DNA from: an uncultured delta proteobacterium
Lineage (GTDB): Bacteria > Myxococcota > Myxococcia > Myxococcales > Myxococcaceae
Reading direction: 5' to 3'
DNA: 64,000 nucleotides
Assembly: GCA_963796055.1 (NCBI GenBank)
Contig: CAWCKH010000005.1
Coordinates: forward strand, 188,579 to 252,578
The notes beneath the pieces were generated by a model. It saw nothing but the letters and a program-made list of their open reading frames with translations, was not told where the DNA came from and did not search any database. The position numbers and the translations under genes are program-made. Positions 39,834 through 60,356 of this stretch are shown here, in pieces (position 1 is the stretch's first letter; every line of letters starts with the position of its first letter).

Positions 39834-39848
39834 TAGCAGACGAAGAAA

Positions 39849-40742: not shown

Positions 40743-40793
40743 AGCACCGGCCTTCGAAGCCGGGGGTAGCAGGTTCGAGTCCTGCCGGAGTCG
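40720..40793 (+). tRNA. tRNA-Arg(TCG)
   Basis: GGCTCCG TAGCTCATCTGGATAGAGCA CCGGC CTTCGAA GCCGG GGGTA GCAGG TTCGAGT CCTGC CGGAGTC G; complete cloverleaf. Confidence 0.95.
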
Positions 40794-42139: not shown

Positions 42140-42372
42140 CAGGCGTCCCCCGACATCTCGGGCTTGAGCGGGAGGACGATAGTCTCCCGGGAGCCCGCCT
42201 GAGCAAACCGTCGCACCGCAGCGGGGTCAAACCGGAGCATGCCACCCACCCGCAGCGACGGGAGCTGACCTCGTTCCGCCTTGGCGTAGACCCAGGACCG
42301 AGACACCTTGAGCGCTCGGGCCACCTCGCGCCAGGTCCAGAGCTCCCATTCCGCGTCGAGGCCAGCGCTCAT
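42139..42372 (-). CDS. Excisionase-like HTH_17 DNA-binding protein
   Basis: LWTWREVARALKVSRSWVYAKAERGQLPSLRVGGMLRFD; TGATG overlap with the integrase. Confidence 0.85.
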   Translation of the reverse strand: MSAGLDAEWELWTWREVARALKVSRSWVYAKAERGQLPSLRVGGMLRFDPAAVRRFAQAGSRETIVLPLKPEMSGDA

Positions 42373-42495
42373 TCCGGGGCCCTCTCGCCAGCGGCCGCGG
42401 TGGACGAGGCGCGCTTGGCCTTCCGGGAGGGCAGGGCAAGGCGGGCCGCGGCCCGCGCGGGGGCGAGCCAGGCCGGCGCGTCCGCCTTCGGGGTC

Positions 42496-42831
42496 TCAGC
42501 GACGAGGGGCACGGTGTGGGGCTCCAGGGGAAGCAGGCTTCTGGTCCTTCAGGGCCTCGTACCGGCGAAGGAGCAGCTCCTGGACGTAACCCAGGATGTT
42601 GAGCCTCTTGGCCTTCATCTCCGCCTCCAGGACGTCCACGACGTACTGGGGGAGGCGGAAGCAGGTCCGGAGCTGGACGAGGACCTCCCGGACCGCTTCG
42701 GCGTTGTACGAGACCCCGAGGGCCGGTTTGAGGACCTCCTGAACGAAGTAGAGGTCCTCGGAGGGGACCTTCACGTTGAGCGGCTGGAGCGCCTCGTCCT
42801 TCGGGAGCGGAGTCTTTCCCACGGTCCTCAA
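42496..42831 (-). CDS. Hypothetical protein, possible element regulator
   Basis: High GC3 ORF upstream of xis-int and directly downstream of the TTGACA/operator box. Confidence 0.65.
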   Translation of the reverse strand: MRTVGKTPLPKDEALQPLNVKVPSEDLYFVQEVLKPALGVSYNAEAVREVLVQLRTCFRLPQYVVDVLEAEMKAKRLNILGYVQELLLRRYEALKDQKPASPGAPHRAPRR

Positions 42832-42834
42832 GTG

Positions 42835-42859
42835 GATTCTATTTAGAACTCATTGTCAA
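42835..42859 (-). promoter_or_regulatory. Promoter/operator box of the element B int operon
   Basis: Minus strand TTGACA-ATGAG-TTCTAAATAGAA-TC. Confidence 0.6.
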
Positions 42860-43025
42860 TGGGAGGGGCCCGGTTGCTCGGTCGTGTTTTCCGGTTAGCG
42901 AGGGGAGAACGGAATGCTCGGCCACGCGATTGCCTGATCCAGCCCGTGGACTTCGGCGGCAGGTGTCGTGGCCCGCCGTCGTGTCGCTGATCACTCCTTT
43001 GCATCCCACCGGCATTTGGGCTGGA

Positions 43026-43170
43026 TGGGCCTCCGGTGGCCGATCGGGATCCCGCTCGCCATCCTCCTCGTCTGGGCGCTCGAAGGGGCTGCCGAGCTCG
43101 TGAAGCGCCGCTACGCCAAGGGCGGGATCGACCGGGAGACCTACGACCGCATGCTCCGGGATTTGAAGCC
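43026..43170 (+). pseudogene. SHOCT-domain membrane protein remnant
   Basis: TM segment followed by ELVKRRYAKGGIDRETYDRMLRDL. Confidence 0.5.
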
Positions 43171-43583
43171 GTGCTGGCGAAGACCATTCGGTGAGCACGT
43201 GCGCGCAGAAGCCCGCAACAGCGCCCGGTTGCTGGCCCCAGAGCGCGCACGAGCACGCGTTCGGCCGCACCGCGTGTAGTACGGAAGTGGCGGCCCCTGG
43301 CGAGGCCGACTCGGTGAGCATGGCACTCATGGAGGTCGCTGTGCGGTGGCGGGGGCTGCGGAGCCCGGAGCAGCTTCGTCAGTCCCTACTGAAGTTGCTC
43401 CTTCTCATGGACCGCATCCGGCTCCCGCGTTCTCCAGACGCCAAGCGCGACGACGAGTGACGCTGTCCTGCGCGATTCACCCACCACCCGCGCACGCCCA
43501 CTGGCTCAGCCGACGACGCCTGCACGCTTCTCGGAACGCTGTTGGCGATAGAGTGCCGGTCTTCGAATGAGAGAGCCGGGCGG

Positions 43584-43796
43584 CTAGAAGTACTGATGCA
43601 TCCCGTGATGCCCCGGGCCGAGAGTGCACTTGCCGCCCTGCGCGTTTGGAGTCCCGCATCGGGGTGCTCGCCTACCCGTCCGGCGGCGTTTGGCTCCAGT
43701 GTCAGGGTCCGTCCAGACGCACTCACCAGTGTGTCCACGTTCAAGCTCACACGAGACAACAGGACCAACGCCGGAAATTGGCTTTCCGCAGTTCAT
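43584..43796 (-). CDS. Small Cys/His protein with two C-x-C-x4-GHxGx[C/H] units
   Basis: MNCGKP...SCELERGHTGEC...RCGTP...KCTLGPGHHGMH, 70 aa. Confidence 0.5.
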   Translation of the reverse strand: MNCGKPISGVGPVVSCELERGHTGECVWTDPDTGAKRRRTGRRAPRCGTPNAQGGKCTLGPGHHGMHQYF

Positions 43797-44156
43797 TTCC
43801 GGGAAGTCTACTAGGGGTACCAACCAGGGGGCCAACGCGCTGGTCCCTGGCCCCGGGCAATTTGCTGTGCCACTGCCGAGGGTAGGGGAAGGGCACGGGG
43901 ACCTCCGAGATGAGTCATCGCAGCTGAGCCTCGCCTCGCTCCGTCTCCGCATCCCAGCAGCCCGGCGCGACCATGCCGCCTTCGACACCGACGCTGGCCG
44001 GGCCCGGCACCTGCTCCGACACCTCGGGAGCTATCAGGCGCCGCGGCTCACGCTCCGGGAGGTGGACGCATACCGTGGGGCACGGCTTCAGGAGAGGACG
44101 CGGCGGGGTGCAGCTCCGGCCCCGGCGACGCTCGACCGCGAAGTCGAGCTCCTGAA

Positions 44157-44238
44157 GCGGGTGCTGGCCTACGCGGTCCGCTCGCGGCTCCTTCTGGAGC
44201 ATCCGCTCCGGGACGTACCGCTACTCCGTAGGCCGAAC
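44157..44238 (+). repeat. 82-bp direct repeat flanking IS66 copy 1 (partner 46532-46613)
   Basis: GCGGGTGCTGGCC...CGTAGGCCGAAC is identical on both sides of the IS. Confidence 0.95.
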
Positions 44239-44297
44239 GTAACCGACCGACGACGGACGTCTTGAGCCGTAGCGGCTGACCGGCAGAGTCGGGCGCC

Positions 44298-44627
44298 ATG
44301 CCCCGACGACCCAGCACCGAGGAGTGGATCGCCCTCCTGGCCGAGTTCGAGCAGAGCGGCCTGCAGCAGAAGGAATTCTGCGCCAAGCACGACCTCTCCA
44401 TCGCCGCATTTCAGTATTGGATGTACAGGAAGGCCAAGAAGCACTCCGAATCGGCAGCCAAGCTTTCCGAGTCCTTCCTGCCCATCGAAGTCGTAGGCTC
44501 TGCCGCGCCTCCAGCGCGGCCAGGGGGAGTGGTTGTGGAGATCGCGCTCGCCGGAGGCATCGTGGTCCGGCTGCCGGCCGGGACCGAGCCCAGGTACGTG
44601 AGCGAGCTGCTTCGGGCGCTGCGGTAG
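44298..44627 (+). CDS. tnpA: IS66 accessory protein TnpA
   Basis: EWIALLAEFEQSGLQQKEFCAKHDLSIAAFQYW HTH; FLPIEV...VEIAL. Confidence 0.88.
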   Translation: MPRRPSTEEWIALLAEFEQSGLQQKEFCAKHDLSIAAFQYWMYRKAKKHSESAAKLSESFLPIEVVGSAAPPARPGGVVVEIALAGGIVVRLPAGTEPRYVSELLRALR

Positions 44628-44634
44628 CCGCCCG

Positions 44635-45234
44635 GTGCTGCTCCTCCCGCGGGCAGTCCGCATCCTCCTCGCCGCGAAGCCCGTGGACATGCGCAACAGC
44701 ATCGACGGGCTCGCCGCCATCATCCGTAACGAGTGGAAGGAGGACCTCTACGCAGGGGACCTCTTCATCTTCGTCAGCCGGCGAGGCGATAGGACGAAGG
44801 TGCTGACCTGGGACAACGGGGGCTTCGTCCTGTTCTACAAGCGGCTCGAGCAGGGCCGCTTCCGGCTCCCGGCCTTCCGCGAGGGTGCGCTCGGAGCGCG
44901 GCTGCAGAGCAGCCAGCTCGCCATGCTGCTCGACGGCATCGACCTCAGCCGCGTCCGCCGGCCCAAGCAGTGGGTCCCCCCGCACCCAGTTTCCAACGAG
45001 GGGGGAGGTATGATCTCTACTGCGCGTTGGCACCAGGCTCCGAAGACCACGAGTGTGCGTGGCGAGACGAAGCCGAACGGCTCGCAGCGGAGCTCGCTCA
45101 AGTCCAGGACCGACAGCAGCAGCTCGAGGGTCAGCTCGCTGCGCTCCAGCGCCACATCTTCGGGCAGCGCAGCGAGAAGATGCCGCCGGTCGCCGAGCAG
45201 CTCCGGGCAGAGAAGCCGGTCGACCCCGCGGTGA
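44635..45234 (+). CDS. tnpB: IS66 accessory protein TnpB
   Basis: PVDMRNSIDGL, LFIFVSRR, KVLTWD..GF.LFYKRLEQGRF; frame extends over the tnpC start. Confidence 0.88.
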   Translation: MLLLPRAVRILLAAKPVDMRNSIDGLAAIIRNEWKEDLYAGDLFIFVSRRGDRTKVLTWDNGGFVLFYKRLEQGRFRLPAFREGALGARLQSSQLAMLLDGIDLSRVRRPKQWVPPHPVSNEGGGMISTARWHQAPKTTSVRGETKPNGSQRSSLKSRTDSSSSRVSSLRSSATSSGSAARRCRRSPSSSGQRSRSTPR

Positions 45235-46490
45235 CGCAGGCGACGCGGCGCGCACGCCGCGAAGCGAGGGCCGCGCTCCCCGAGCGCCTCGTCGAGCACC
45301 GAGTCGCTGACGAGAAGCGGACCTGCCCGAAGTGCGGGAGCTCGGAGCTGCGGCCCGTGGGCGAAGGGAAACGGACGTACTTGTACGAGTACGTGCCGGC
45401 CCGCTTCGAGCGACAAGTGCACGTGCAAGAGACGCTGGCCTGCCGATGCGGCGAAGGCCTCGTCACCGCGGACGGGCCTCGCCGCGTGGTGGACAAGTGC
45501 CAATACGGGCCTGGCCTGCTCGCCCACGTCGTCACGGCGAAGTGCGCCGACAGCATTCCTTTGTACCGCCAGGCCAAGGCGCTGGCCCGCGCCGGCGTGC
45601 CCATCAACCGCACCACGCTCGGAGACCTCTTCCACACCACAGCGGACGTGCTCGCGCCCTTGGCCGCTCGGATTCTCCAGCGGGTGCGCGACGCGCAGCT
45701 GGTCCGAGCGGATGAAACGCCCATCCGCGTCCTTGCGGAGGAGAAGACACGTCGCGGCTACATCTGGACGTTTCGGACGGAGAAGCTCATCGCCTACGAG
45801 TACAGCGCGTCCCGGAGCGGTGAGACGCCCGCGAGGGTGCTCGAAGGCACGAAGGGCTATCTGCTTGTCGACGCGTACAGCGGCTACAACGCCGTCACCC
45901 TGCCCGATGGACGCATCCGCGTGGGCTGCTGGGCGCACGTGCGGCGGAAATTCTTCGACGCGCTCGGCACCGCCCCCGAGGCCCAGGGCATGCTGGACCT
46001 CATCCTTGGCCTGTACCGAGTCGAGCACGCCGCCCGCGACGCGGGCGTCCTCGGCCAGCCGGAGCACCTCCAGCTCCGAGCTGAGCAGAGCGTCCCGCTT
46101 CTCGGGAAAATTCGCGACTGGCTGGCCACACAGGTCCCGCTCCATCCGCCGAAGTCTCCGCTGGGCGAGGCGATCCGCTACGCACGTGGGCAGTGGGAGG
46201 CGCTGGGCCACTTCGTGGAGGGTGCCTCGCTGCCGCTCGACAACAACGCTTCGGAGAACGCGCTCCGCACCGTCGCCCTCGGTCGGAAGAACTTCCTCTT
46301 CGTGGGGCACGACGAAGCCGGAGCCGGACTCGCTGGTCTCTACTCCCTCGTGGCCACCTGCCAGGCGAACGGAGTCAATCCGGAGGCGTACCTCGCGGAT
46401 GTCCTCCTCCGCGTGCAGAGCCACCCGGCGGCGCGGATCGACGAGCTGCTCCCGGACCGGTGGATGCAGCCAGCTCCGAACACCTCCTGA
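45027..46490 (+). CDS. tnpC: IS66 DDE transposase TnpC
   Basis: Leucine zipper then FGQRSEK, CPKCG zinc finger, ADETP, VDAY, CWAHVRRKF, DNNASENALR; start approximate. Confidence 0.93.
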   Translation: MAPGSEDHECAWRDEAERLAAELAQVQDRQQQLEGQLAALQRHIFGQRSEKMPPVAEQLRAEKPVDPAVTQATRRARREARAALPERLVEHRVADEKRTCPKCGSSELRPVGEGKRTYLYEYVPARFERQVHVQETLACRCGEGLVTADGPRRVVDKCQYGPGLLAHVVTAKCADSIPLYRQAKALARAGVPINRTTLGDLFHTTADVLAPLAARILQRVRDAQLVRADETPIRVLAEEKTRRGYIWTFRTEKLIAYEYSASRSGETPARVLEGTKGYLLVDAYSGYNAVTLPDGRIRVGCWAHVRRKFFDALGTAPEAQGMLDLILGLYRVEHAARDAGVLGQPEHLQLRAEQSVPLLGKIRDWLATQVPLHPPKSPLGEAIRYARGQWEALGHFVEGASLPLDNNASENALRTVALGRKNFLFVGHDEAGAGLAGLYSLVATCQANGVNPEAYLADVLLRVQSHPAARIDELLPDRWMQPAPNTS

Positions 46491-47598
46491 CCGCTCAGCT
46501 CGGCCGGAGGATCCAAGCTCGAATCGGTTACGCGGGTGCTGGCCTACGCGGTCCGCTCGCGGCTCCTTCTGGAGCATCCGCTCCGGGACGTACCGCTACT
46601 CCGTAGGCCGAACGTGCGCCGGACGGTACTGGACGAGGAAGGGTTTCAGCGGCTCTTCGCAGCGGCGGAAGAGGCGCTCCGACCCGTCCTCCTGGTGGCC
46701 TTCGACACCGGGATGCGGAAGGCAGAGATTCTGAGGCTGCGCTGGGAACAGCTCGACCTCGCAGCCGGGCACATCCGGCTCGAGGCCGAGGACACGAAGA
46801 CGAACCAAGCCCGCCTGATTGTCCTCACCGAGCGGGTGAAGCACGCGCTCCGTGCTCTCCCCCGTGGACTCGGGCGAGCCTCGGTCTTCGCCAATCCGGC
46901 AACCGGAGCCGCGTGGGCCGACCTTCGAAAGGCGTTCCACCGGGCCCTCGAGACAGCGAAGCTCGAGGGCCTCTGGTTCCACGACCTGCGGCGCAGCTTC
47001 GTCACCCGCGCGCGGAAGCACCGCATCCCCGAGTCGGTGGCGATGCGGATGTCCGGGCACCGCACCCGGGCGGTGTTCGATCGGTACAACGTGGTGGACG
47101 ACGAGGATCTGCGAGCGGCCGTGCGCGCGCTCGAAAATCCAGGACACGTTTAGGACAAAGCGACCAAATGCGCCCCCAGAAACACCAAAGCCCCACCGTC
47201 TAAGGGACGGAAGGGCTTCGGCTTTTCGGAGTTGCGGGGGCCTGCTTTTTGGCCTACCGCGAACCGTTCTCCGGTCGCTGGTGGCTGCCACGCGCGGCAG
47301 AGGCCAGGTTCGTGACCGGCAGAGTCGGGCGCCATGCCCCGACGACCCAGTCCGTAGCCGACGTCCGCCGCCAAAACCCCGTTTGTTCTTCCTTGGACCA
47401 CGAGGGGCCCCAGGCGTCGTGCTGTCTGCGTCGCAGATGCGCGCTACCTCGGCTCCCGAGTCGCGGTCGGACCGTAGGCCGAGCTCGCCGGCACGCGATT
47501 CACCGCCTCGCGCGGTTCGCGGTCTTCGGGAGCCCCCGGTCCAGCCGTCTGCACGACGCCAGGCGCGCGGGGCCTGATACGCTCGGGCGGTGATCGTG

Positions 47599-48858
47599 AT
47601 GAGAGGGGTGCGTGGACTCGGGGCTGCTCTTCTGCTGGCCCTGTTCGCCTGCCCGGTGCCGCCTCCGTCGCCGCCGCCCTTCGACTTCGTGCCGTCGGTC
47701 TTCCCTCCGCATCCGTTCATCGACGTACCAGGGACGGGCCTGCCTCTCTCCTTCGAAGCGACGGCGAGCAGCGGAACGCCCGGGCCGATCTCCATCGAGC
47801 TGGTTGGGCTGCCGCCCGGAGCGACCACCAGTCCACCGCTGCCGGCCACCCTCGTCGTCGGACAGTCGCTGCAGGTGACGCTCTCGGTCACCGCGAGCGA
47901 GGGCGACTTTCCTCTGCAGGCGGTGTTCACTGCGGGCTCCCAGGTTCACGACGCGGGCCTGCTGCTGTCGACCCGCGCCGCTCCGCTGGTCAGAACCTAC
48001 GAGGTGGGCACCCTCCGCTTTCTCGAGTTGACCACCGACGCCGGGACCGCGCGGATCGGACTCGAGACCGCCTGGGGAGGCGCGATCGTCGAGGCGAGCT
48101 TCGACGGCCGAAACGCGGTCAACCGCCACGACGACGGCCGCGAGGTCCAGATCGCTCTGTACGACGGCGCGCGCGACAGCGTGGCGACTCCGTTCGCGTG
48201 GGATCCGGTGCAAGGCGGAGACACTTACGGCCATGGGAGCCCGGTAATCGACGAGGCGCAGACCACGGCGAGCCTGTACCTGAAGACGCTCCCCCTCGAG
48301 TGGATCCCGGACGACAAGGACGGCGGCCCGTCGCAAGGGATCCTCTCGGACGTAGTCTTCGAGCAGTGGGTCTACCCGGTGCCGAATGCATTCCCGATCT
48401 TCCGGGTTCACGTTCGGGTCACCCATCTGGGCACTGACTCTCATCCCACGGCGGGCCAGGAGTTTCCCGCCGCGTACAGCTTGCTCGAGCTCAACCACTT
48501 CCTGGTCCCGTCGGGCTCGGCGTGGGCGCTCGGGCCCGTCACGGATCTCGCCCCGAAGACAGCCTCGGAGATCAGCCACGCCTCGAGCGAGGGCTGGGTC
48601 GCGCGGGCGGACGACGGCGGGTTCGGGTTGACGATCTTTGTGCCCGGCTCCTGCGGAGTGGGGGCCACGCAAGACTTCGCGGGGCCGGGCGGCGAGCTCG
48701 GTAACGGTACAGGGTACTTCCGGCTGAATACCAGTTTCCCGATCGGCCCTTCGCAAGTCCTGGATGCCGATTACTATGTCGCCGCCGGAGACTACCGATC
48801 GATCCGCGAGCGGATCTACGGCCTGCGCGCGGTCAGCCCCGCCGCGCTCTGCCAGTAG
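47599..48858 (+). CDS. Hypothetical lipoprotein with Ig-like and beta-sandwich regions
   Basis: LALFAC lipobox, Pro linker, NRHDDGREVQIALYDG and WDPVQGGD. Confidence 0.65.
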   Translation: MRGVRGLGAALLLALFACPVPPPSPPPFDFVPSVFPPHPFIDVPGTGLPLSFEATASSGTPGPISIELVGLPPGATTSPPLPATLVVGQSLQVTLSVTASEGDFPLQAVFTAGSQVHDAGLLLSTRAAPLVRTYEVGTLRFLELTTDAGTARIGLETAWGGAIVEASFDGRNAVNRHDDGREVQIALYDGARDSVATPFAWDPVQGGDTYGHGSPVIDEAQTTASLYLKTLPLEWIPDDKDGGPSQGILSDVVFEQWVYPVPNAFPIFRVHVRVTHLGTDSHPTAGQEFPAAYSLLELNHFLVPSGSAWALGPVTDLAPKTASEISHASSEGWVARADDGGFGLTIFVPGSCGVGATQDFAGPGGELGNGTGYFRLNTSFPIGPSQVLDADYYVAAGDYRSIRERIYGLRAVSPAALCQ

Positions 48859-50160
48859 ATCGGACCTTCGATTCTCCACGACCCGTTCACCTTCCGCTTC
48901 GGCGTCCCCTTGCCGAACCGCATCCCTGTCCCCCTGAAGCCAACTCTCCCCTCACTCGACTCCTCATCCGAGCCTCCCGGCACGCGCACCCGGACTCCGC
49001 ACGAAACGAGGGCTGGACGGCCACCGGCCTGTGTGCGCCGCGCCCCGGCCCGGGAGGCCGTCCTCAGCAGCCTCACACGGACGAGCCCCTCCACTTCGGA
49101 TCAGCGCGGTTTCTTTCGCTGGCTCGCCGGTGGGATCCCAAGCACTTCACGGTATTTGGCCACCGTGCGTTTGGCGATGTCGATTCCTCGGGCGCGGAGC
49201 AAAGAGACGATCTCATAGTCCGAGTAGGGGCTCCTGGCGTCCTCGGCGGCGACGATCTGCTGGATGTGCTTCGTCACCACCTCGCTGGGGATGTCGTCGC
49301 CGACGACGTGCGACCAGTTCCGCCCGGGCTTCGGGTCCAGCTTGGCGAGGAGCTTGCTCGCATCCACCACCTCGGAGAGGCTGATCTTCAGCTCGCGGGC
49401 AATGGCGGGCAGGTTCTTCGACTCGAGCAGCTCGAGGTGGCGCTTGAGGATGAGCGAGAGGAGCGGGGCCCGGGCATCCTTGAGGCCCGCGGCCTGGATG
49501 AGCAGGCACTCCTGGAGGTCGCGGGCGCCGCAGCCCCTCGGCTCGAGCTGCTGAATTTTCCGGAGCGTCCGCTCGGCCAGCGCCATCGACACGTCCGCCT
49601 CGCTCGCCAGGCGGATGAGGGGGTCGCCCTCGACGTCGGGCAGGGTGAGGTAGCCGTCGTCGTCGAGGTTGCCGAGCACCAGCGAGGCGATGCGCCGCTC
49701 GGCGTCGTTGAGCTTCTCGAAGTCCAGCTGAGTCCAGAGGTCGTGGGCCAGGCCCCCCTTCTTCGCCAGGTTGGCGTAGAACGACAGGGGGTCCTCGGCG
49801 GCGACGTTGCCCTTGTTGGAGGCGGTGCCGGGCTCGTTGAACTGGTAGCTATTGAAGTAGGCGTCCCAGTCGATCTCCGCCGGGCCCTCGCCCTTGACCT
49901 CCTCGGCGCGCTCGGGGACCTTGTCCTCGAGGGCTCCCGGAAGGGGTTCGGTGGTCTCCGCCTCCAGGCTGGCCTCGCCGGGGGCCTTCTCGTCGAGGTT
50001 GCCGTCAGTGGTCTCCTCCGGCCCCTCTAGGAGGGGGTTCTGCTCCAGCTCCTCCCGGACGGTTTCCAGCAGCTCTATCCGGGACAGCTGCAGAAGCTGG
50101 GGGGGCATCGCCAGCGACAGTGAAGATCTGAGGTGCTTGCGCATCAGCGCGTGGATCTCT

Positions 50161-50206
50161 TCCCGCAGGGCGTGAACGGGCACCCCGACGAAATCGGCCA
50201 GAGGGC
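50161..50206 (+). repeat. 46-bp direct repeat flanking IS66 copy 2 (partner 52499-52544)
   Basis: TCCCGCAGGGCGTGAACGGGCACCCCGACGAAATCGGCCAGAGGGC is identical on both sides. Confidence 0.95.
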
Positions 50207-52498
50207 GTAACCGATCGAGCTTGGATCCTCCGGCCGAGCTGAGCGGTCAGGAGGTGTTCGGAGCTGGCTGCATCCACCGGTCCGGGAGCAGCTCGTCGAT
50301 CCGCGCCGCCGGGTGGCTCTGCACGCGGAGGAGGACATCCGCGAGGTACGCCTCCGGATTGACTCCGTTCGCCTGGCAGGTGGCCACGAGGGAGTAGAGA
50401 CCAGCGAGTCCGGCTCCGGCTTCGTCGTGCCCCACGAAGAGGAAGTTCTTCCGACCGAGGGCGACGGTGCGGAGCGCGTTCTCCGAAGCGTTGTTGTCGA
50501 GCGGCAGCGAGGCACCCTCCACGAAGTGGCCCAGCGCCTCCCACTGCCCACGTGCGTAGCGGATCGCCTCGCCCAGCGGAGACTTCGGCGGATGGAGCGG
50601 GACCTGTGTGGCCAGCCAGTCGCGAATTTTCCCGAGAAGCGGGACGCTCTGCTCAGCTCGGAGCTGGAGGTGCTCCGGCTGGCCGAGGACGCCCGCGTCG
50701 CGGGCGGCGTGCTCGACTCGGTACAGGCCAAGGATGAGGTCCAGCATGCCCTGGGCCTCGGGGGCGGTGCCGAGCGCGTCGAAGAATTTCCGCCGCACGT
50801 GCGCCCAGCAGCCCACGCGGATGCGTCCATCGGGCAGGGTGACGGCGTTGTAGCCGCTGTACGCGTCGACAAGCAGATAGCCCTTCGTGCCTTCGAGCAC
50901 CCTCGCGGGCGTCTCACCGCTCCGGGACGCGCTGTACTCGTAGGCGATGAGCTTCTCCGTCCGAAACGTCCAGATGTAGCCGCGACGTGTCTTCTCCTCC
51001 GCAAGGACGCGGATGGGCGTTTCATCCGCTCGGACCAGCTGCGCGTCGCGCACCCGCTGGAGAATCCGAGCGGCCAAGGGCGCGAGCACGTCCGCTGTGG
51101 TGTGGAAGAGGTCTCCGAGCGTGGTGCGGTTGATGGGCACGCCGGCGCGGGCCAGCGCCTTGGCCTGGCGGTACAAAGGAATGCTGTCGGCGCACTTCGC
51201 CGTGACGACGTGGGCGAGCAGGCCAGGCCCGTATTGGCACTTGTCCACCACGCGGCGAGGCCCGTCCGCGGTGACGAGGCCTTCGCCGCATCGGCAGGCC
51301 AGCGTCTCTTGCACGTGCACTTGTCGCTCGAAGCGGGCCGGCACGTACTCGTACAAGTACGTCCGTTTCCCTTCGCCCACGGGCCGCAGCTCCGAGCTCC
51401 CGCACTTCGGGCAGGTCCGCTTCTCGTCAGCGACTCGGTGCTCGACGAGGCGCTCGGGGAGCGCGGCCCTCGCTTCGCGGCGTGCGCGCCGCGTCGCCTG
51501 CGTCACCGCGGGGTCGACCGGCTTCTCTGCCCGGAGCTGCTCGGCGACCGGCGGCATCTTCTCGCTGCGCTGCCCGAAGATGTGGCGCTGGAGCGCAGCG
51601 AGCTGACCCTCGAGCTGCTGCTGTCGGTCCTGGACTTGAGCGAGCTCCGCTGCGAGCCGTTCGGCTTCGTCTCGCCACGCACACTCGTGGTCTTCGGAGC
51701 CTGGTGCCAACGCGCAGTAGAGATCATACCTCCCCCCTCGTTGGAAACTGGGTGCGGGGGGACCCACTGCTTGGGCCGGCGGACGCGGCTGAGGTCGATG
51801 CCGTCGAGCAGCATGGCGAGCTGGCTGCTCTGCAGCCGCGCTCCGAGCGCACCCTCGCGGAAGGCCGGGAGCCGGAAGCGGCCCTGCTCGAGCCGCTTGT
51901 AGAACAGGACGAAGCCCCCGTTGTCCCAGGTCAGCACCTTCGTCCTATCGCCTCGCCGGCTGACGAAGATGAAGAGGTCCCCTGCGTAGAGGTCCTCCTT
52001 CCACTCGTTACGGATGATGGCGGCGAGCCCGTCGATGCTGTTGCGCATGTCCACGGGCTTCGCGGCGAGGAGGATGCGGACTGCCCGCGGGAGGAGCAGC
52101 ACCGGGCGGCTACCGCAGCGCCCGAAGCAGCTCGCTCACGTACCTGGGCTCGGTCCCGGCCGGCAGCCGGACCACGATGCCTCCGGCGAGCGCGATCTCC
52201 ACAACCACTCCCCCTGGCCGCGCTGGAGGCGCGGCAGAGCCTACGACTTCGATGGGCAGGAAGGACTCGGAAAGCTTGGCTGCCGATTCGGAGTGCTTCT
52301 TGGCCTTCCTGTACATCCAATACTGAAATGCGGCGATGGAGAGGTCGTGCTTGGCGCAGAATTCCTTCTGCTGCAGGCCGCTCTGCTCGAACTCGGCCAG
52401 GAGGGCGATCCACTCCTCGGTGCTGGGTCGTCGGGGCATGGCGCCCGACTCTGCCGGTCAGCCGCTACGGCTCAAGACGTCCGTCGTCGGTCGGTTAC
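50207..52498 (-). mobile_element. IS66-family element, copy 2 (inverted; tnpA 52110-52439, tnpB 51503-52102, tnpC 50247-51710)
   Basis: Protein translations identical to copy 1; 2292 bp, one base shorter near the right terminus. Confidence 0.95.
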
Positions 52499-52979
52499 TC
52501 CCGCAGGGCGTGAACGGGCACCCCGACGAAATCGGCCAGAGGGCTGCATTCGACACGCAGGGCCATCGTCTCGACCACGCGTGCAATGCCTGCGGCCCCG
52601 AGCGGGAATCCGCGTTCGCGCGCCAGCTCCTGCTTGAGCTGAGCAATACGCTCCAGTGAGTGCCCACCACGTCGCGCGAGCGTATCCCGGACCTCGCTGT
52701 CCAGTCCGTTGCCTTCGGCCACGTACTCCCTCATCACCCCCGCGAGCTCCAGCTCCAGCGCGCAGGCCCAGAGCGGGTGGCTCTGAATCACCGCGTCGGC
52801 GAACAGGCGCGCGATCACCTCGCGAGCAATGACTTGGACGACCCTCGAGAGGAGTTTCATCGGACCCCCGGAGCTTCCCGGCGCGGGCGATGCTAGCCAA
52901 CTGCGTGCGACGAGTCTCGGAACGGCGCCCGAGGGACAGCCGAATTCGGCCAACACACTTCCGTTGCACGGTAGTCCGT

Positions 52980-53063
52980 GGGCTTGATCTCGTGGACAGT
53001 CTGACTACGCGATCGCCCCCGTACCCACGTCTCCGAAGGTGTCCACCGGAACGGATCAAGCCC
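52980..53063. repeat. 84-bp miniature inverted-repeat element
   Basis: GGGCTTGATC...GATCAAGCCC perfect 10-bp terminal IR with inner GTGGACA/TGTCCAC. Confidence 0.5.
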
Positions 53064-53064
53064 A

Positions 53065-53798
53065 GAGCGCGCCTCTCTGGCGGACCAGGTGCGGACACTT
53101 CTCCAGGAACTCGAGGCCTAAAGTCACGTCCCGCAATCAATTGCGGGATCGGCCTTTTGGGGCTCGAAATGGCTCTCGAATCCGCCCGAAAATACGCTCC
53201 ACAATGCGCTCCCGGATCGGGCGCATTGTCGGGCCGTTTGCCGGGCCGAATGCCGGGCGGCTTCGAGCAGCCGTCGTCAAGCAGGTCGCGCCCTTCCGCC
53301 CTCGCCCACCCGGTTCGCCTGCAGCACCGGGAGCACCCCCGAGTTTCCCGCTCACGCCCTCGCAACCATGAAACTGAGGGCGTGAGCGGGAAACTCTGGG
53401 TACCGTGAATTCTAACGGGGTGGGCGAGGGCGAAAGGACCCTCATTTGTGGAGTCTTGATGAGGAAGGTCTTGAGATGAAGTGAGTGACGAAGGGAGGGC
53501 AGTGAGAAAGGCGTGAGCAATGATGGAACGTGCATCCCCCGAGGGGCTCGAACAGACCGGTTGGCGCGGACGGCTGAGGCGAAAGGACCGACAGCTGGTT
53601 GGCGCACTTGGACTCTGTCGGTAGCTGACCATCCAGCAAGTCATCGAACTCGGAGTGGGCGCCAGGACGGAGAAGGCGACCGGGTACAGGCTCCGTGGAC
53701 TCGCCGGCCTTGAAACCAGGTCCAAGGTGCGAGCATCGAGGCCCGGACTGTTGAGACGCTTTCCTTTCCGTTCTTTCGAGGGCGAGCGGCTGCACCTG
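53065..53798 (+). repeat. About 735-bp duplicated segment, copy 2 (relaxase 5' end with premature TAG)
   Basis: Colinear with 38404-39140; CGG-TAC in copy 1 is CGG-TAG here. Confidence 0.9.
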
Positions 53799-53857
53799 GA
53801 AACCGGAGGTACCTTGTCGGCTTAGCCCACCCGTCTACGAGACCAGGGGAAGCTCAC

Positions 53858-53924
53858 TCCGCCCCAGCTCGGCCTCTAGTGAGGCCGGCCGAGGTTCGAG
53901 ACGCGCCCCGCCCTGACGACGGGC
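53858..53924 (+). mobile_element. Short IS91/ISCR-like 3' remnant
   Basis: CCGCCCCAGCTCGGCCTCTAGTGA...GAGGTTCGAGAC...CCCTGACGACGGGC, shared with the other copies. Confidence 0.55.
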
Positions 53925-54133
53925 CCGACGTCCGGGAGGCGGTGAACGCTTGGATCCGGAAATCGGGTGAGTTCGATGCGGTCCTCGACTTCGACGCCGC
54001 CCTCCGCGATCCGCGCCATCCGAAGCGCCTGCTGCCCGAGTACGACAGTGGTGACCACCTCCACCCGAACCGCGCCGGGCACAGGGCGATGGGCGAGGCC
54101 ATCGACGTGCGCCTTTTCGACGGCCCCGCCTAG
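53925..54133 (+). pseudogene. C-terminal fragment of an SGNH/GDSL hydrolase
   Basis: REAVNAWIR...FDAVLDFD..LRDP...YDSGDHLHPNRAGH. Confidence 0.7.
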
Positions 54134-55731
54134 GAGCCTGTAGGGCGTAGAGGTCAGGGCGGCGTGATCCGCTGGGCGGCATGAAGACCTGCCGCCCGTG
54201 GGCGCCGCTGCAGTCGTACCTGCTCCCGCCGTCGCCGGCGGACTGGCTCCCGGAGGGGCACCTCGCCTATTTCGTGCTCGAGGTGGTGGACCAGCTCGAC
54301 GTCGCCGCCATCGAGCGAGCCATTTCCCAGAAGGACCCGCGTGGGGAGCGCCCGTACTCGCCGCGGATGTTGCTGGGGCTGCTCATGTACGGCTACTGCG
54401 TGGGCCTGTTTTCCTCGCGGAGGCTGGCGCGCGGGACGTACGAGGACGTGGCGCTTCGGGTGCTGGCGGGGGAAGAGCATCCGCACTTCACCACCATCAA
54501 CCAATTCCGGCTGGTGCACCGGACGGCCATCGCCGGCCTCTTCGTGCAGGTGCTGGAGCTCTGCCGTCGAGCCGGGTTGGTGAAGCTGGGACACGTGGCG
54601 CTGGACGGGACGAAGCTGCTGGCCAATGCGAGCAAGCACAAGGCGATGAGCTACGAGCGGATGAAGAAGGACGAGACGCGGCTGCGAGGAGAAGTGGAGA
54701 GCCTGCTCACCCAAGCCGACGCGGTGGACGAAGCCGAGGACGCCCGCTACGGCAGAGGCATTGCCCCCGACGACTTGCCGGCCGAGTTGCAGCGTCGCGA
54801 GACGCGGCTCGAGCGCATTCGGCAGGCCAAGGCAGCGCTCGAAGAGGAGGCCCGCGCAGCACGGGCCCGGAGACTTCGAGAGAACGCCGAGGGGCTCGAG
54901 GCGGACGCGCTGAACGCCCAACTACCCGCCCGCCAGCGCAAGACAGCAGCCACCCTCGCCAAGCGGAGCGCCGCTCAAGCGGACCTGCTCGACGGCGGAC
55001 GAAAGGACGACGATGACGACCCGCCCTCAGGCGGTGCCACCGGCCTACCCACCCATCGGGTGAGGGCTCACGTCGACGGCACTCCGAAGTCGAAGGCACA
55101 GCGGAACTTCACCGACCCCGACAGCCGCATCATGGAGAAGAACGGCAGCTTTCTGCAGGCATACAACGCCCAAGTCGTGGTGGACGAAGCCCACCAAGTC
55201 ATTCTCGCGCACGGCCTGTCCAACCAGCCGCCCGACGTCGAGTACCTCGAGCCACTGCTGAGGGCCGCTGTCGCCAACTGCGGGGCGTCACCGGAGAAGG
55301 CCTCTGCGGATTCGGGCTACTTCTCGGCGGAGAACGTCGCGGCGTGCGACTCCTTGGGCATCTCGGCCTACATCTCCGTCGGTCGCGACGCGCACGACGG
55401 GCGCATCACCGACCCACGAACGACTCCGGCGAAGGACGCGATGCGGCTGAAGCTCGAGTCGGAGGAGGGCAGAGCCGTGTACGCGCGCCGGAAGGCCATC
55501 GTCGAGCCTGTCTTCGGGCAGATGAAGGCAGTCCGCGGCTTCCGTCGCCTCTCGATGCGGGGCAGGCAGAAGGCAGCGGGCGAGTGGGGCCTCGTTTGCC
55601 TCACCCACAACCTCCTGAAGCTCTTCCGGGAGGCCTGGCTCCCGGCACTCATGCCCGCGTAGCGCCGACGGGCCGCCAGTCAGCCACCGACGGCGCCCGC
55701 GCCAACGAGAGCGGCTACGCCCTACAGGCTC
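54134..55731 (+). mobile_element. IS1182-family element
   Basis: Perfect 17-bp IR GAGCCTGTAGGGCGTAG / CTACGCCCTACAGGCTC; CTAG on both sides. Confidence 0.9.
54181..55662 (+). CDS. IS1182-family transposase
   Basis: LLPPSPADWLPEGHLA, PYSPRMLL, LDGTKLLANAS, TDPDSRIM, ADSGYFS, RKAIVEPVFG. Confidence 0.92.
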   Translation: MKTCRPWAPLQSYLLPPSPADWLPEGHLAYFVLEVVDQLDVAAIERAISQKDPRGERPYSPRMLLGLLMYGYCVGLFSSRRLARGTYEDVALRVLAGEEHPHFTTINQFRLVHRTAIAGLFVQVLELCRRAGLVKLGHVALDGTKLLANASKHKAMSYERMKKDETRLRGEVESLLTQADAVDEAEDARYGRGIAPDDLPAELQRRETRLERIRQAKAALEEEARAARARRLRENAEGLEADALNAQLPARQRKTAATLAKRSAAQADLLDGGRKDDDDDPPSGGATGLPTHRVRAHVDGTPKSKAQRNFTDPDSRIMEKNGSFLQAYNAQVVVDEAHQVILAHGLSNQPPDVEYLEPLLRAAVANCGASPEKASADSGYFSAENVAACDSLGISAYISVGRDAHDGRITDPRTTPAKDAMRLKLESEEGRAVYARRKAIVEPVFGQMKAVRGFRRLSMRGRQKAAGEWGLVCLTHNLLKLFREAWLPALMPA

Positions 55732-55804
55732 CTAGCGGCGCGCGCGACCGGGGTGTTGGGTCCCGGTCGCGGCAGCCTCCGGAACGGAGTAGGGTCGCCA
55801 GCCA

Positions 55805-58472
55805 ATGGAGCTCGGACCGGGCGCGCGCCTCGGACCTTACGAGATCCTCGCTCACCTCGGCGCCGGAGGGATGGGTGAGGTCTGGCGCGCACGGGACCCA
55901 CGCCTGGGGCGTGAGGTGGCGCTCAAGGTCCTCCAGGCCGACGTCTCGCACGACGAGGAGTGGCGGCGACGCTTCGAACGAGAGGCCCGGTCCGCCGCGA
56001 GCCTCTCGCACCCTCACGTCTGTGCCGTGTACGACGTCGGCCGCGAGGGAACCCGGGACTATTTGGTGCTCGAGCTCCTGGAGGGCGAGACGCTCGAGGC
56101 GCGGCTCGAGCGTGGCGCGCTTCCCTACCCGGAGGTACTCCGGCTCGGAGCACAGATCGCCGCCGCCCTCGCCGCCGCTCACGCATCGGGCCTCATCCAC
56201 CGAGACCTCAAGCCCGGAAACGTGATGCTGGTCAGCGCCGGGGTGAAACTGCTCGACTTCGGGCTCGCCAAGCTGGTCCTCGAGGCCGCGCCCTCGGCCG
56301 GGAACACCCTCGGCTCGACCGCCGGCATGGGTCTGACCAGGCACGGCTCACTGCTCGGCACGGTGCCGTACATGTCACCCGAGCAGGCGGCGGGGAAGCC
56401 GGTGGACGCGCGGAGCGACATCTTCGCCCTGGGCGCGGTGCTCTACGAGATGGCCACCGGTGAGCGGGCGTTTCCCGGTCAGACTTCGGCCGAGGTTCTC
56501 TCGGCGATTCTGACCCGCGATCCGCCGGCGATCTCCAAGCTTCGTCCGGCCACGCCGGCAGGCTTCGACCGGCTGGTGGCAGGCTGCCTGGCCAAGGATC
56601 CGGCGGACCGGTGGGACTCGGCCCACGACCTGTCCATCCGGCTGAGGACGCCGGAGGTCGAGGTCGGGCCCTCCGGAGAGGGAGCGTCCCGGGCGCCACG
56701 ACGTCGGGTGGTGGCCGCCGTGCTGTTCGTGGGCGTGCTCCTGGGCGCCGTCGGGGCCTTGCTCATCCGGTCCCCGGCACCGGCGCCCGAGCCGGCCTCA
56801 CCGGTCCACCTCCTCCAGCCGCCCCCCACTGGAACCAAGATCTTCAACGTGCCCGAGACGAGCTCGATCGCCGTGTCGCCGGACGGCAAGCGCATCGCCT
56901 TCGTCGCCTACCAATCGGGACTGGCGAGGTCGGCGTGGATGCTGCCGGAGGGCAGACAGGTCTGGGTGCGAAACCTGTCCGAGCCCGAGGCCCACCCGGT
57001 CCCCTTCACCGAGGACGCGACGTCGGTCTTCTGGTCACCTGACGGAACCGCGCTCGGCTTCGTCGTCCCCGGGGCGATGAAGCGGGTGAACCTCGACGGA
57101 GCCATCCCGGTGCTGATCTGCCCGATGGGCCCGGGGGCACTGGCCAGCTGGGGCCCCGATGGGAACATCGTCTTCACCAGGCTGGTGGAAGCCGCGCTGT
57201 TCCAGGTTCCGGCGGCGGGAGGCGAGCCACGCCCGCTCTTCCAGCCCGACCGCTCCAGCGGGGACACGGCGTACAGCTGGCCGGTTTACCTGCCCAACGG
57301 ATGGTTGCTGTTCCTCGCCCGGAGAGGGGATGGAACCTACCGGCTGATGATGGCCAGACCGGGGGAGCCTCCCCGGCCGCTGATGCCCGTGAGCTCCAAG
57401 GTGCAATTCACCGAACCGGGACTCCTGGTGTTCGTGCGGGACGCCGCCCTGCTCGCGCAGCGCTTCGACCTTCGTTCGCAGAAGCTGGTGGGCGAGCCCT
57501 GGGCGATCGCCAGCCACGTCAGGAACTTCGCCTCCAACGCATCCGCGGAGTTCGCCACCTCTGCCGGTGGCACCCTGGTCTGGCAACCCGCCGACAGCGT
57601 GGGGTCGCTGACCTGGTTCGACCGCGCCGGTCACTCCCTCGGGCGGCTGGGAGAGGACGGGTCGTGGAGGGCAGTGTCGATCTCTCCCGACGGCGAGTCC
57701 GTCGCCTGCAGCCGTGCCCGGCCGGACACGGGCGTCTTCGAATCTCTGGTCCTTCGACATCTCGCGTGGCCTTGCCACGCCCATCGCTCCCAACCGCTTC
57801 ACCGAGAACTTGCCAGTGTGGCACCCCTCGGGAGCCGAGCTGGTGTTCACCGGAGCTGAGCGAGGAGTTCCCAACCTCCGCCGTCTGAACCTCGCCACCG
57901 GCGAGGTGGTGGAGCTCCGGCCGTCCGGAACGTTCCAGATCCCCCAGACGTTCTGCCCCGATGGACGCACCCTGGTGTTCACCGAGCGGGAGGGGAACGG
58001 CGAGCAGCGGGCCTACGAGATGCCGTTCAGGCCCGGCGCGGAGTCGAAGCGCTTGCCACTCTCGGACGCCGACACCTGGTCCCTGCGCTGCTCGCCGGAC
58101 GGACATGACCTGGCGTACATCTCGAGCGCGTCGGGGCGCGGCGAGCTCTACATCGCGCGCAACGACCACCCCGGCAGCCCGGTGCGGGTCTCGCGCGACG
58201 GCGCCGTGCTGGCCCGCTGGTCGCGAGGAACCCAGGAGCTCATCTACCTCGCGCCCGACCGGAAGGTCTGGTCCGTTCCGGTGGCCACCGACCGGTCGCT
58301 CCGAGCCGGTGTTCCGGCACTTCTCTTCGACTCTGAACAGAGCTTGCCCTGGGTGGACTTTGACGTCTCACCCGATGGGCAGCGCATCCTGGCGAACGTC
58401 CCGCTGATCGACGCCGACGGGATGCCGCTGGAGGTGCTGGTACACTGGCCCGCGGCGGCGGCGCCCCACTGA
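55805..58472 (+). CDS. Ser/Thr protein kinase with TM and PD40/TolB-like beta-propellers (frameshift near 57740)
   Basis: GAGGMGEV, VALK, HRDLKPGN, DFGLAK, YMSPEQ, SPDG repeats; the propeller continues in ORF 57714-58472. Confidence 0.88.
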
Positions 58473-58554
58473 GGTTCGTTCGGCGCCGACGGAAGGCGAC
58501 CGCCAAGAAAGCGACACCCGAGAGCCCAGCTCCGCCTGCCGCCTCGGTCCGAGG

Positions 58555-58685
58555 TCAGCGAAGGACGAGCACCGGGATCTTGCTGTGGGTCAGCACTTTG
58601 GTGGTCTCGCTCCCGATCAGCAGGGCCTGCACCCCTCGCCGCCCGTGCGAGGCCATCATGATGAGGTCACAGCCCTCCGCCACCG
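58555..58685 (-). pseudogene. C-terminal fragment of a UspA-family gene
   Basis: AEGCDLIMMASHGRRGVQALLIGSETTKVLTHSKIPVLVLR*; the 5' part is replaced by an IS91-like remnant. Confidence 0.8.
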
Positions 58686-58949
58686 CGAGAGACCATCCTC
58701 GCCGGAAGCGTCCCTGAGAGGCCCCTCCTCTCGCCCCGGCCACCTCCCCGCCCCAGCTCGGCCTCTGGTGACTGCAGTCCAAGCCTCGAGACTCCCTCCG
58801 CCCTGACGACGAGCCAGCGACTGCTCGACCCTCGTCAGCGGTGAGCACCTCCGCCGAGCCTTCCCGCAGCCTCGTCCTGGCCCTCCGCCCCGGCGACGCG
58901 GGTCCCCTGCCCAGGCCTCCGCCACGAAAGCCGGTTTGTTCTTCCTTGG
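58686..58949 (+). mobile_element. IS91/ISCR-like 3' end remnant with ori-like terminus
   Basis: Similar to 31350-31628; ends GTTTGTTCTTCCTTGG. Confidence 0.6.
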
Positions 58950-58967
58950 GCTCGTCCACGCTGAGGC

Positions 58968-59300
58968 TTACCGGCCACCTCTGCGGATGAAGTCTTCGAG
59001 GTCCTCGACCCGCACCCGGATGGCGTTGGACACCCGGACGTGCCGGAGTTCGCTGCGCTCGCACAGCGCGTAGACGGTCGCGGTCGACACACGCAGGTGC
59101 TCCGCGGCCTCGCGGACGGTGAGCAGGGCTGGGACGGAGAAGGAAAGGCCCTGGAGCCTTGGCTTGGGTCCCGCGGGGGTCCCGCTCCGCAGCGTCCGCT
59201 GGAGCCCACGCGGTGCTAAGCCGCCCGAATCACCTTCGCGACCCTCAATGTTTGTCACGGGTTGGATGGAGGAGGAGGCTGTGGAAAGGGGCGCGACCGA
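58968..59300 (-). CDS. Detached C-terminal segment of integrase B with an HTH_17 domain
   Basis: LLTVREAAEHLRVSTATVYALCERSELRHVRV; frame is open up to the att core and in phase with integrase B. Confidence 0.8.
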   Translation of the reverse strand, partial: SVAPLSTASSSIQPVTNIEGREGDSGGLAPRGLQRTLRSGTPAGPKPRLQGLSFSVPALLTVREAAEHLRVSTATVYALCERSELRHVRVSNAIRVRVEDLEDFIRRGGR

Positions 59301-59346
59301 CTTCGAAGCCGGGGGTAGCAGGTTCGAGTCCTGCCGGAGTCGCTCG

Positions 59347-60270
59347 TCAGCTCATGAGCCCCAGCGCCGCGGCGATGGCCGCGACCGCGGTGTCGTGCAC
59401 CGGCGTGGGGACGCCCACCTGACGCCCCAGCCGGCTCACCGCGCCAGAGAGGACGTCGAGCTCGGTCGGACCGCCTCGCTCCACGTCCAGTAGGAAGCTG
59501 GGCTTCATCGGCGCGGGCATCGACCGCACCTGCTCCAGGACGCGCGTCACCTCGTCCGCAGCGAAGCCGATGCCCATCGCCCGCCCCACCGCCACCGACT
59601 CGGCCGTCGCTCGCTCGAGAAGCGTCTGACCCAGGGGCGCCCCGCGGACCGGACCGACCGGCGTGCGCGCCAGGCCACAGCAGCTGGACATGGTGGTGAT
59701 GAAGACGAACTTCCGCCAAAGCTCGAGCGCCATCTCGGCGCTTGCCCGGGCCTCGATGCCCGCGGCGGAGAGGACGCCGGCGATGTTCCGTGCGCGCTCG
59801 GAGAGGCCACCAGCGAGCTCGCCCAGCACCACCCGGTTGAAGGGACTGTTGCGGACGATCTGCCCCGGGCCGGTGCGCTCGGCGCTGATCGCCGCCAGCC
59901 CGCCCAGGATCGACTGCCGTGGAACCCCGAGCTGCTCGAGCCGGTCGGCCGCCTCCACGCCGTTGAGGAGCGGGAGCACGGTCGCGCCGTGCCGGGCAAG
60001 GTCGCCGGCGACGGGTCCGACGGCGTCCAGGTCGTAGCTCTTGACGGTCACCAGCGCGAGCTCGGCGCCACGCAGCGCCGCCGGGTCGTCGGTGGCGGTG
60101 ACCGGTGCGCGCCAGGTGCTCCCGTCGGGCTCGGTGATCCGGAGACCCTGGGAACGGATGGCCTCGAGGTGCTTGCCCCGGGCGAGCAGCTGGACCTCGT
60201 TGTTCGCCCTGGCCAGCACCCCGCCGTCGTAACCGCCCACTCCACCGGCGCCGAGAATCGCGATCCGCAT
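59347..60270 (-). CDS. panE: 2-dehydropantoate 2-reductase
   Basis: MRIAILGAGGVGG, VTVKSYD, LLNGV, WRKF, KPSFLLD...TELD. Confidence 0.88.
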   Translation of the reverse strand: MRIAILGAGGVGGYDGGVLARANNEVQLLARGKHLEAIRSQGLRITEPDGSTWRAPVTATDDPAALRGAELALVTVKSYDLDAVGPVAGDLARHGATVLPLLNGVEAADRLEQLGVPRQSILGGLAAISAERTGPGQIVRNSPFNRVVLGELAGGLSERARNIAGVLSAAGIEARASAEMALELWRKFVFITTMSSCCGLARTPVGPVRGAPLGQTLLERATAESVAVGRAMGIGFAADEVTRVLEQVRSMPAPMKPSFLLDVERGGPTELDVLSGAVSRLGRQVGVPTPVHDTAVAAIAAALGLMS

Positions 60271-60356
60271 GGGCGGTCAGCGTAACGACGCGCCGGGGCG
60301 CCTGCTCTACTCCATGGGACCCCACCGTGCTGTTGCGTCGCTGACGGCGGCCTTCG

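Follow-up and report, generated by a model that had tools for sequence, protein, structure and literature searches.

Does integration change an integrase whose attachment (att) site lies inside its own gene? This question is raised by island B, an 18.5-kb body of DNA (40796..59300) bounded by copies of a tRNA-derived att core, in a 64-kb stretch from an uncultured member of the Myxococcaceae. We refer to this whole stretch as the window; all coordinates are those of the window, and its G+C content is about 70%. The initial annotation had claimed that the integrase of island B (integrase B) reads through the att core and ends AGALSR* inside the tRNA, that the two cores are 18549 bp apart, a multiple of 3, and that the frame continuing from 59300 has no stop. 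All three claims were reproduced: the first by translation and ARAGORN, the second by a repeat search and a script, and the third by a scripted join followed by translation, which gave the sequence as first read. The annotation further proposed that excision fuses the integrase with a helix-turn-helix (HTH) domain and that this fusion is a switch of direction.

The att core and the divided integrase frame

The integration target is an intact tRNA-Arg gene (anticodon TCG), which was located by ARAGORN at 40720..40794 (+). The left copy of the core, attL (40752..40795), was found by a repeat search, and its extent was measured by script as 44 bp: it consists of the last 43 bases of the 3′ part of tRNA-Arg(TCG) and one base more. 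The right copy, attR (59301..59344), is a displaced 3′ fragment of tRNA-Arg and is 100% identical to attL. The spacing of the cores, measured from start to start, equals 3 × 6183 bp.

Integrase B is encoded on the minus strand in two parts. The main part (40731..41843), which was assigned by Pfam, by translation and by tblastn with the close relative P0004 (79% identity, frame -3), comprises the core-binding and catalytic domains followed by antisense-tRNA codons. Phage_integrase (PF00589) matched residues 207-424 with 84.7 bits (cut-off 27.1, E=8.4e-24). The first 100 codons (41840..42139, frame -1) begin MATVRKN and encode a domain of the arm-binding type; they aligned with residues 1-100 of P0004 at 80% identity, and the Int_N match was below the cut-off. 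The real start is the ATG at 42139, and the open reading frame (ORF) start at 42245 is spurious. Because the 44-bp core is wholly inside the ORF 40731-42245 (-), the att core lies within the int reading frame. The stop (40731-40733) is six codons past the left core. The catalytic R, K, H-x-x-R, H and Y are all upstream of the core, in near-invariant columns of alignment A1.

When both att cores were joined by script, the integrase B frame continued for 110 codons (59300-58968) instead of six. Thus, in the integrated state a C-terminal tail of 110 codons (58968..59300, -; stop at 58968-58970) is detached from integrase B and has no start of its own at the core. Tail residues 59-108 (58977..59126, -) form a winged HTH of the excisionase family: they matched HTH_17 (PF12728) with 52.1 bits (cut-off 27, E=7.9e-14) and TIGR01764 ("excise") with 39.7 bits (cut-off 28.8). 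Both scores are above the cut-offs and bear out the excisionase-like domain named by the initial annotation.

The open frame itself was compared with a control. At 20000 random positions and strands of the window, 37.7% gave 110 or more open codons. At least 110 open codons are commonplace in such a GC-rich window, and therefore the absence of a stop is not significant by itself. Of the three readings at the junction, the in-frame one alone is open (110 codons, with the HTH), and stops appear in the others after 14 and 17 codons. In a tblastn search, residues 424-559 of P0018, a full-length member of the family, aligned across the right core into the tail (E=9e-16). It is this homology across relatives, and not the open frame, that is decisive for the link between tail and integrase.

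The fold of the tail was modelled with AlphaFold from a 12-row alignment. Residues ~59-108 had a predicted local distance difference test (pLDDT) score of more than 90 and the topology E-H-H-E-E-H, and residues 1-58 were predicted to be disordered (mean pLDDT 45-64 per 10-residue block over residues 1-60). In a Foldseek search, the nearest folds in the PDB were BldC, Pukovnik Xis, RdfS, GIsul2 Xis and Tn916 Xis. The first three matched with a probability of 1.00 and a root-mean-square deviation of 1.2-1.5 Å over 49 residues (E 0.01-0.03). Across the nearest folds, the probabilities were 1.00 and the E-values just 0.01-0.4, and this weakness of the E-values is due to the small size of the domain. 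Superposition of Pukovnik Xis on the tail fold gave a template-modelling score of 0.80 (normalised to the target) with 31% identity. A sequence-only search of the PDB with the tail gave Pukovnik Xis (4j2n) as its single match, which was weak (E=0.46). When the tail was compared with phage records by tblastn, three weak matches were obtained; two were mycobacteriophage "excise" genes, and phage Mx9 was absent from the matches. The HTH of Mx9 described below was detected by profile only.

Relatives and split copies at other tRNA genes

Homologs with a C-terminal HTH, on whose absence the initial annotation would have given up the fusion, were found in four places: in phage Mx9, in a protein collection, in genomes of the same order and in a replicate set of elements. 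The integrase of the Myxococcus phage Mx9 (Int; AY247757, 548 aa) was the best phage match to integrase B (35.6% identity, residues 144-442). It has HTH_17 at residues 489-537 (E=3.5e-11) and TIGR01764 too, and the joined integrase B aligned with it end to end, HTH included. Between the catalytic domain and the HTH of Mx9 Int, codons ~458-478 carry a tRNA-like segment on the opposite strand (Rfam tRNA, 25.3 bits, E=0.019, below the gathering score).

A collection of 5.8 billion proteins gave 861 matches at E<=1e-10; the following statements cover the 120 that were listed. Eight of these are 521-588 aa long, carry both PF12728 and PF00589 and align with the joined integrase B, and most others are ~455-465 aa long and carry PF00589 alone. 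The order in the long relatives is catalytic domain, tRNA-derived peptide, linker and HTH. The short relatives that were fetched (P0008, P0012 and P0055) end in or just past the tRNA-derived peptide. Among genomes of the same order, 99 of 121 matched P0018 at E<=1e-6, a number that may include more distant integrases. Nearly all of the listed matches span residues 1 to ~400-460; three span the whole length, and Pfam recognised Phage_integrase and HTH_17 in all three. Both the full-length relatives (A1) and the orphan tails at different tRNAs show strong conservation of HTH_17 and of its recognition helix. A scan of IMG/VR with P0018 patterns gave three loci with partial weak matches (27-64 residues) and no full-length Int-HTH protein.

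One full-length Int-HTH ORF (L013:2940-4634, G067:C52) harbours a whole tRNA-Asp gene on its other strand (4249-4322, ARAGORN), placed after the catalytic domain and ahead of the HTH.

For replication, five genomes of 1-20 contigs with strong Int matches were picked before their tails were viewed, and these contained seven elements. Each of the seven integrases adjoins an oppositely oriented tRNA gene, and at a distance of 8-37 kb there is an HTH_17 ORF with the orientation of the integrase. The tail was in frame with the integrase across the core in 7/7 elements, and the HTH was intact in 6/7. In five of them (cores of 45-73 bp), the virtual join was in frame and added 105-118 residues ending in the HTH. 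In the G058 element, the frame of the 48-bp core is unchanged between the two sides, and the HTH tail is intact. The core of the G108 element is degenerate; the tail keeps to the frame of this core, and a frameshift interrupts the HTH. All four tails sent to Pfam were HTH_17. In the window's own genome, the join of an element at tRNA-Pro was also in frame. Thus, the in-silico attP join and the relatives support the structural part of the initial proposal, namely an Int-HTH protein in the circle and a tail-less Int in the integrated state.

The seven elements include a tandem pair at tRNA-Gly(CCC) in G103 (L007+L008, G103:C1:524000-557500), whose 47-49-bp core is translated in two different frames. 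Each integrase of this pair is in frame with its own tail and never with that of the neighbour, and the pair serves as an internal control. It also bears on a different explanation of the HTH, in which the tail is a tethered directionality factor for tandem arrays: an int gene re-fused to a tail at the junction would drive excision or resolution and not integration. The excisionase fold of the tail suits this idea, as do the existence of the G103 pair and, in the window's own genome, a contiguous junction of Int fragment, core and tail (C4:1665436-1666140). The upstream int of G103, however, is out of frame with the neighbour's tail, so that re-fusion in arrays is not general. We consider this explanation very unlikely.

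The junction on C4 is the distal end of the tRNA-Pro element (G000 C4:1659706-1666140), where Int fragment, core and HTH tail are contiguous. Such a junction is expected of a tandem array if the tail of the first element was re-fused to a second int that has since been truncated. Two further loci of the same genome were observed. At G000 C3:770117-771831, an unsplit integrase of the family is followed by a tRNA-derived peptide and by an HTH tail in another frame, and no tRNA gene is nearby. This is an attP-like chromosomal arrangement with a frameshift between core and HTH. At G000 C4:4966-31621, the 27 kb upstream of a tRNA-His gene contain five incomplete copies of it (offsets 4966, 14771, 16390, 19305 and 20320), and the same region contains an HTH tail ORF at 25962-26138. 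Repeated integration may have left the copies behind as an array of att scars.

Candidate arm-type repeats, rival explanations and the possible role of the tail

Two candidate arm-type sites flank the core. On the int side, a 23-nt block at 40866..40888 in the int ORF contains two 9-mers 11 bp apart and encodes SGTPAGP. A block 100% identical to it lies in the tail ORF at 59166..59188. All four copies of the 9-mer in the 64-kb window fall in these two blocks; their count is not above chance, and their placement is. In the joined site, both blocks are within coding sequence, one ~80-90 bp ahead of the core and the other ~115-130 bp beyond it. The window element and five others (6/6) have paired direct repeats of 9-11 nt, 11-12 bp apart, at about -90/-79 and +117/+129. 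The sequence of the repeats differs between elements and matches on both arms of each. At the protein level, the repeats give rise to a short motif that occurs both before and after the tRNA-derived peptide. P0003-P0006, close relatives that target another tRNA, retain the repeat motif of the window. From their sequence and placement, the paired repeats are most simply interpreted as putative arm-type binding sites. In the six elements compared, repeats of different sequence go with differing N-terminal domains and Xis proteins, whereas the recognition helix of the tail is almost invariant; these six are too few and too related to separate the N-terminal domain from Xis as reader of the repeats.

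These repeats and the relatives also bear on whether the ORF 58968-59258 is simply an independent small gene for an excisionase or regulator, with a coincidental match to the int frame. The GTG at 59258 opens an ORF of 96 aa that holds the complete HTH_17, long open frames are frequent in the window, and HTH_17 is common (it was matched in 11/14 control genomes). In addition, panE lies upstream of the tail on the same strand with no terminator-like site between, so that the tail region could be transcribed. Against this stand the natural full-length Int-HTH proteins known from databases and genomes, the in-frame tails of the seven other elements and of one element of the window's own genome, the identity of the tail-side and int-side arm repeats, and the alignment of P0018 across the core into the tail. 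Moreover, the bases upstream of the GTG are CCTCC-rich, and no purine-rich ribosome-binding site precedes it in the sequence read. A scan for promoters and terminators over 58700-59500 on both strands gave nothing; its promoter model was of the sigma-70 type only. An independent gene is therefore highly improbable and was rejected as the principal explanation, although some additional stand-alone expression of the tail in the integrated state would be compatible with the data.

The explanation that we prefer is that island B is an integrative element of the Mx8/Mx9 myxophage integrase lineage with attP in int, inserted in the 3′ half of tRNA-Arg(TCG), in which recombination would bias its own direction. 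Taken as a whole, this statement is likely. Its structural component, the split of the integrase, is very likely. The gene order is an N-terminal domain of the arm-binding type, the catalytic domain, a pair of candidate arm repeats, the 44-bp core translated as antisense tRNA, an identical pair of such repeats, a predicted disordered linker and the winged HTH. Because attP is inside int, integration carries the final 110 codons to the far end of the island and puts six antisense-tRNA codons in their place. Excision would rejoin the 110-codon tail in frame. By analogy with Mx8, the full-length form in the circle would be the efficient integrase for attP x attB, the truncated prophage form together with a separate Xis would perform excision, and recombination would rewrite its own enzyme and thereby bias the direction. 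The variable N-terminal domain or Xis may be the reader of the variable paired repeats. The HTH of the tail, with its near-invariant recognition helix, may bind something common to all these elements, and its role could be architectural on attP or lie in an interplay with Xis. For this direction-biasing function, on present analysis, the chances that the model is right or wrong seem evenly balanced.

In the precedent, Myxococcus phage Mx8 (IntP/IntX, with Uoi), ~112 C-terminal residues are reportedly exchanged for ~13 on integration, attP function is said to require arm sequences that lie within int to either side of the core, and the prophage form of the integrase is reportedly less active. 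The target of Mx8 is said to be tRNA-Asp. The initial annotation had cited Mx8 as the known case. This was right in kind; the closer relative is Mx9, Mx8 being more distant from integrase B in sequence, and Mx8 Int has no HTH_17 at E<0.1. According to the review PMC6070905, the Mx8 attP is inside int, and integration creates a new 3′ end, alters the behaviour of the integrase and works as a switch; the same source describes Mx9 integration as following "a similar principle". Mx9 and island B share the order of catalytic domain, tRNA-like segment in the ORF and C-terminal HTH_17/TIGR01764. Unlike Mx9, which is a complete tailed phage, island B lacks recognised phage structural genes (Pfam, 20 ORFs). 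Two other differences are that the Mx9 segment resembles the 5′ two-thirds of a tRNA, whereas the core of island B is the 3′ part of tRNA-Arg, and that the linker of Mx9 is much shorter than that of integrase B. Mx8 resembles island B in its uoi, a gene for an HTH_17 excisionase that directly precedes int and overlaps it. In contrast, the Mx8 Int tail aligns poorly with the joined integrase B, and HTH_17 is found in Uoi instead.

Comparison with lambda-type systems places the tail in a further context. Island B shares with them a tyrosine integrase with an N-terminal arm-type domain, candidate arm repeats flanking the core and a small winged-HTH recombination directionality factor (RDF). In lambda-type systems, and in Pukovnik Xis, RdfS and Tn916 Xis, the winged HTH is a separate protein that promotes excision. 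In island B, a second copy of this fold is covalently attached to Int, and in the excised state only.

Integrase B was also compared with the suicidal integrases of archaea of the SSV type. As described in PMC7253208 and PMC8371274, these have attP in the ORF, a translated core and tRNA targets, and their disruption is a control of directionality; the split leaves two inactive pseudogenes, and no RDF is used. An archaeal review among these sources calls suicidal integrases exclusive to archaea. Island B shares with them attP within the integrase ORF, the translated core and the tRNA target. However, the catalytic residues of integrase B stay on one piece, the accessory C-terminal domain alone is removed, and a separate xis is present. 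Since all catalytic residues are upstream of the core, the split does not give two inactive halves, and assignment of integrase B to the SSV type was rejected.

Several points weigh against the model in which the tail biases recombination. The excisionase fold would sit on the integration-competent form and exist only after excision, which is the opposite of the usual role of this fold. The transfer of function from Mx8 to the HTH tail would be indirect, given that Mx8 Int, the sole experimentally dissected case, has no detectable HTH_17. The title of an entry in the reference list of PMC11610982 states that the Mx8 tail is not needed for excision; a dispensable tail would fit the model and yet allow the tail to be of minor importance. 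No attP/attB joint was present among the joints listed from contigs of four metagenome runs, in which rare circles are invisible. The int gene itself has a 1-nt frameshift beside a C5 run near 41842, which parts its first 100 codons from the remainder, and island B contains two copies of the insertion sequence (IS) IS66 and a further DDE transposase.

The frameshift was compared with metagenome contigs of related organisms. In two runs, one extra base is present behind 41842 (X1) or 41843 (X3), and this base would unite both parts of integrase B in one frame. The frameshift is either a real 1-nt deletion or a homopolymer sequencing error at the C5 run. As it stands, the integrase B copy is not an intact, potentially active int; its membership of the family is unaffected. 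Given the frameshift and the colonisation by IS elements, the copy of island B is probably no longer mobile. Because int is frameshifted, the switch may no longer operate in this genome. Sequencing runs with parts of the stretch were metagenome contig sets only (best share of words, 0.38), and no RNA run containing the stretch was listed in this search. The empty site was sought in two genomes of the same genus: in G102, panE (78% identity) has no tRNA alongside, and G045 was unmatched, so that attB was not comparable.

The possible minor importance of the tail leads to another explanation, in which the split is real but functionally neutral: the attP arms overlap the 3′ end of int, and the tail is irrelevant to direction and efficiency. 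The truncated form retains every catalytic residue, the reference title in PMC11610982 on the Mx8 tail points the same way, and the 88-aa tail of IntA, a second integrase in the window, has no recognisable domain. In contrast, HTH_17 and its recognition helix are conserved in full-length relatives and in orphan tails, which implies selection on the tail, and exchange of the C terminus in Mx8 alters the behaviour of the integrase (PMC6070905). A neutral split is therefore unlikely.

Returning to the direction-biasing model, we propose two extensions, which we regard, taken together, as possible but doubtful. Firstly, a winged HTH of the excisionase fold would have been recruited in a large clade of Myxococcota as a tethered, integration-specific directionality module, which is attached and detached by recombination, the reverse of its usual role. 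Secondly, the orphan tail in the lysogen may also be made alone and could then work in trans, for instance in competition with Xis or as a repressor of int. The tail may be made alone because it is downstream of a host gene with no terminator-like site between.

Features around the split integrase and their meaning

The separate xis claimed by the initial annotation is present beside int, at 42139..42372 (-). It encodes a Uoi-like excisionase of 77 aa (HTH_17, E=1.9e-9; TIGR01764, 33.7 bits). Its stop overlaps the start of int: the A of the ATG at 42139 is the last base of the xis stop codon. Xis is 38% identical to the HTH of the tail over 52 residues. At the other end of the island, the host gene panE (59347..60276, -; ketopantoate reductase PanE/ApbA, Pfam ApbA and ApbA_C) shares the strand of the tail, and 3 bp separate its end from the attR core.

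The body of island B was analysed by Pfam on 20 ORFs and by repeat search. Apart from xis, it contains the two IS66 copies, a fragment of a tyrosine recombinase, a sigma-54-like gene, a DDE transposase and a Ser/Thr kinase. The IS66 copies (TnpB_IS66 and DDE_Tnp_IS66; 44239-46522 and 50215-52498) form a perfect inverted repeat of 2284 bp (100% identical). They bracket 3.7 kb with the tyrosine-recombinase fragment, an unknown ORF of 426 aa and the sigma-54-like gene, a layout that resembles a composite transposon.

IntA (39837-40742, +), which belongs to the same family, runs towards the same tRNA-Arg gene from the opposite side, and its stop falls within the 5′ part of that gene. It is 47% identical to residues 128-441 of P0004, and its N-terminal ~127 residues are missing. 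The IntA core of 23 bp (tRNA 5′ end, 40719-40741) recurs at 29018-29040, 11.7 kb to the left, where the G+C falls to 0.62-0.67. The virtual join of IntA is open for 88 codons more, and the 88-aa tail has no Pfam domain. Just left of IntA, a segment of ~740 bp (38404-39140) is repeated in island B at 53065-53798 with 91-97% identity and internal inverted repeats. The long ORFs over this repeat (404 and 417 aa) had no match in Pfam. The repeat may be an unclassified mobile element that truncated IntA.

The split of integrase B is a further case of the known Mx8/Mx9 arrangement. The literature passages that were retrieved, which do not extend to the primary papers on Mx8 and Mx9, state neither that the exchanged tail is an HTH of the excisionase family nor that the design is family-wide in Myxococcota. 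Among these passages, PMC4383910 describes Islander as explicitly excepting attP-in-int of the Mx8 type from its rule on tRNA fragments in coding sequences, and PMC6070905 and PMC11610982 describe integration vectors based on Mx8 and Mx9 as standard tools of myxobacterial genetics.

The practical consequences concern annotation and these tools. Gene callers label the prophage forms as complete integrases of ~460 aa and the tails as orphan "excisionases" or hypothetical ORFs, and island finders that bar tRNA fragments within coding sequence can miss such ends. Knowledge of the HTH in the tail and of the candidate arm sites inside the ORF helps to define minimal attP-int cassettes. For the biology of the family, the self-rewriting integrase gene of Mx8 is a family-wide design in Myxococcota and not a curiosity of one phage, and what is exchanged in the Mx9-like branch can be recognised as a DNA-binding domain.

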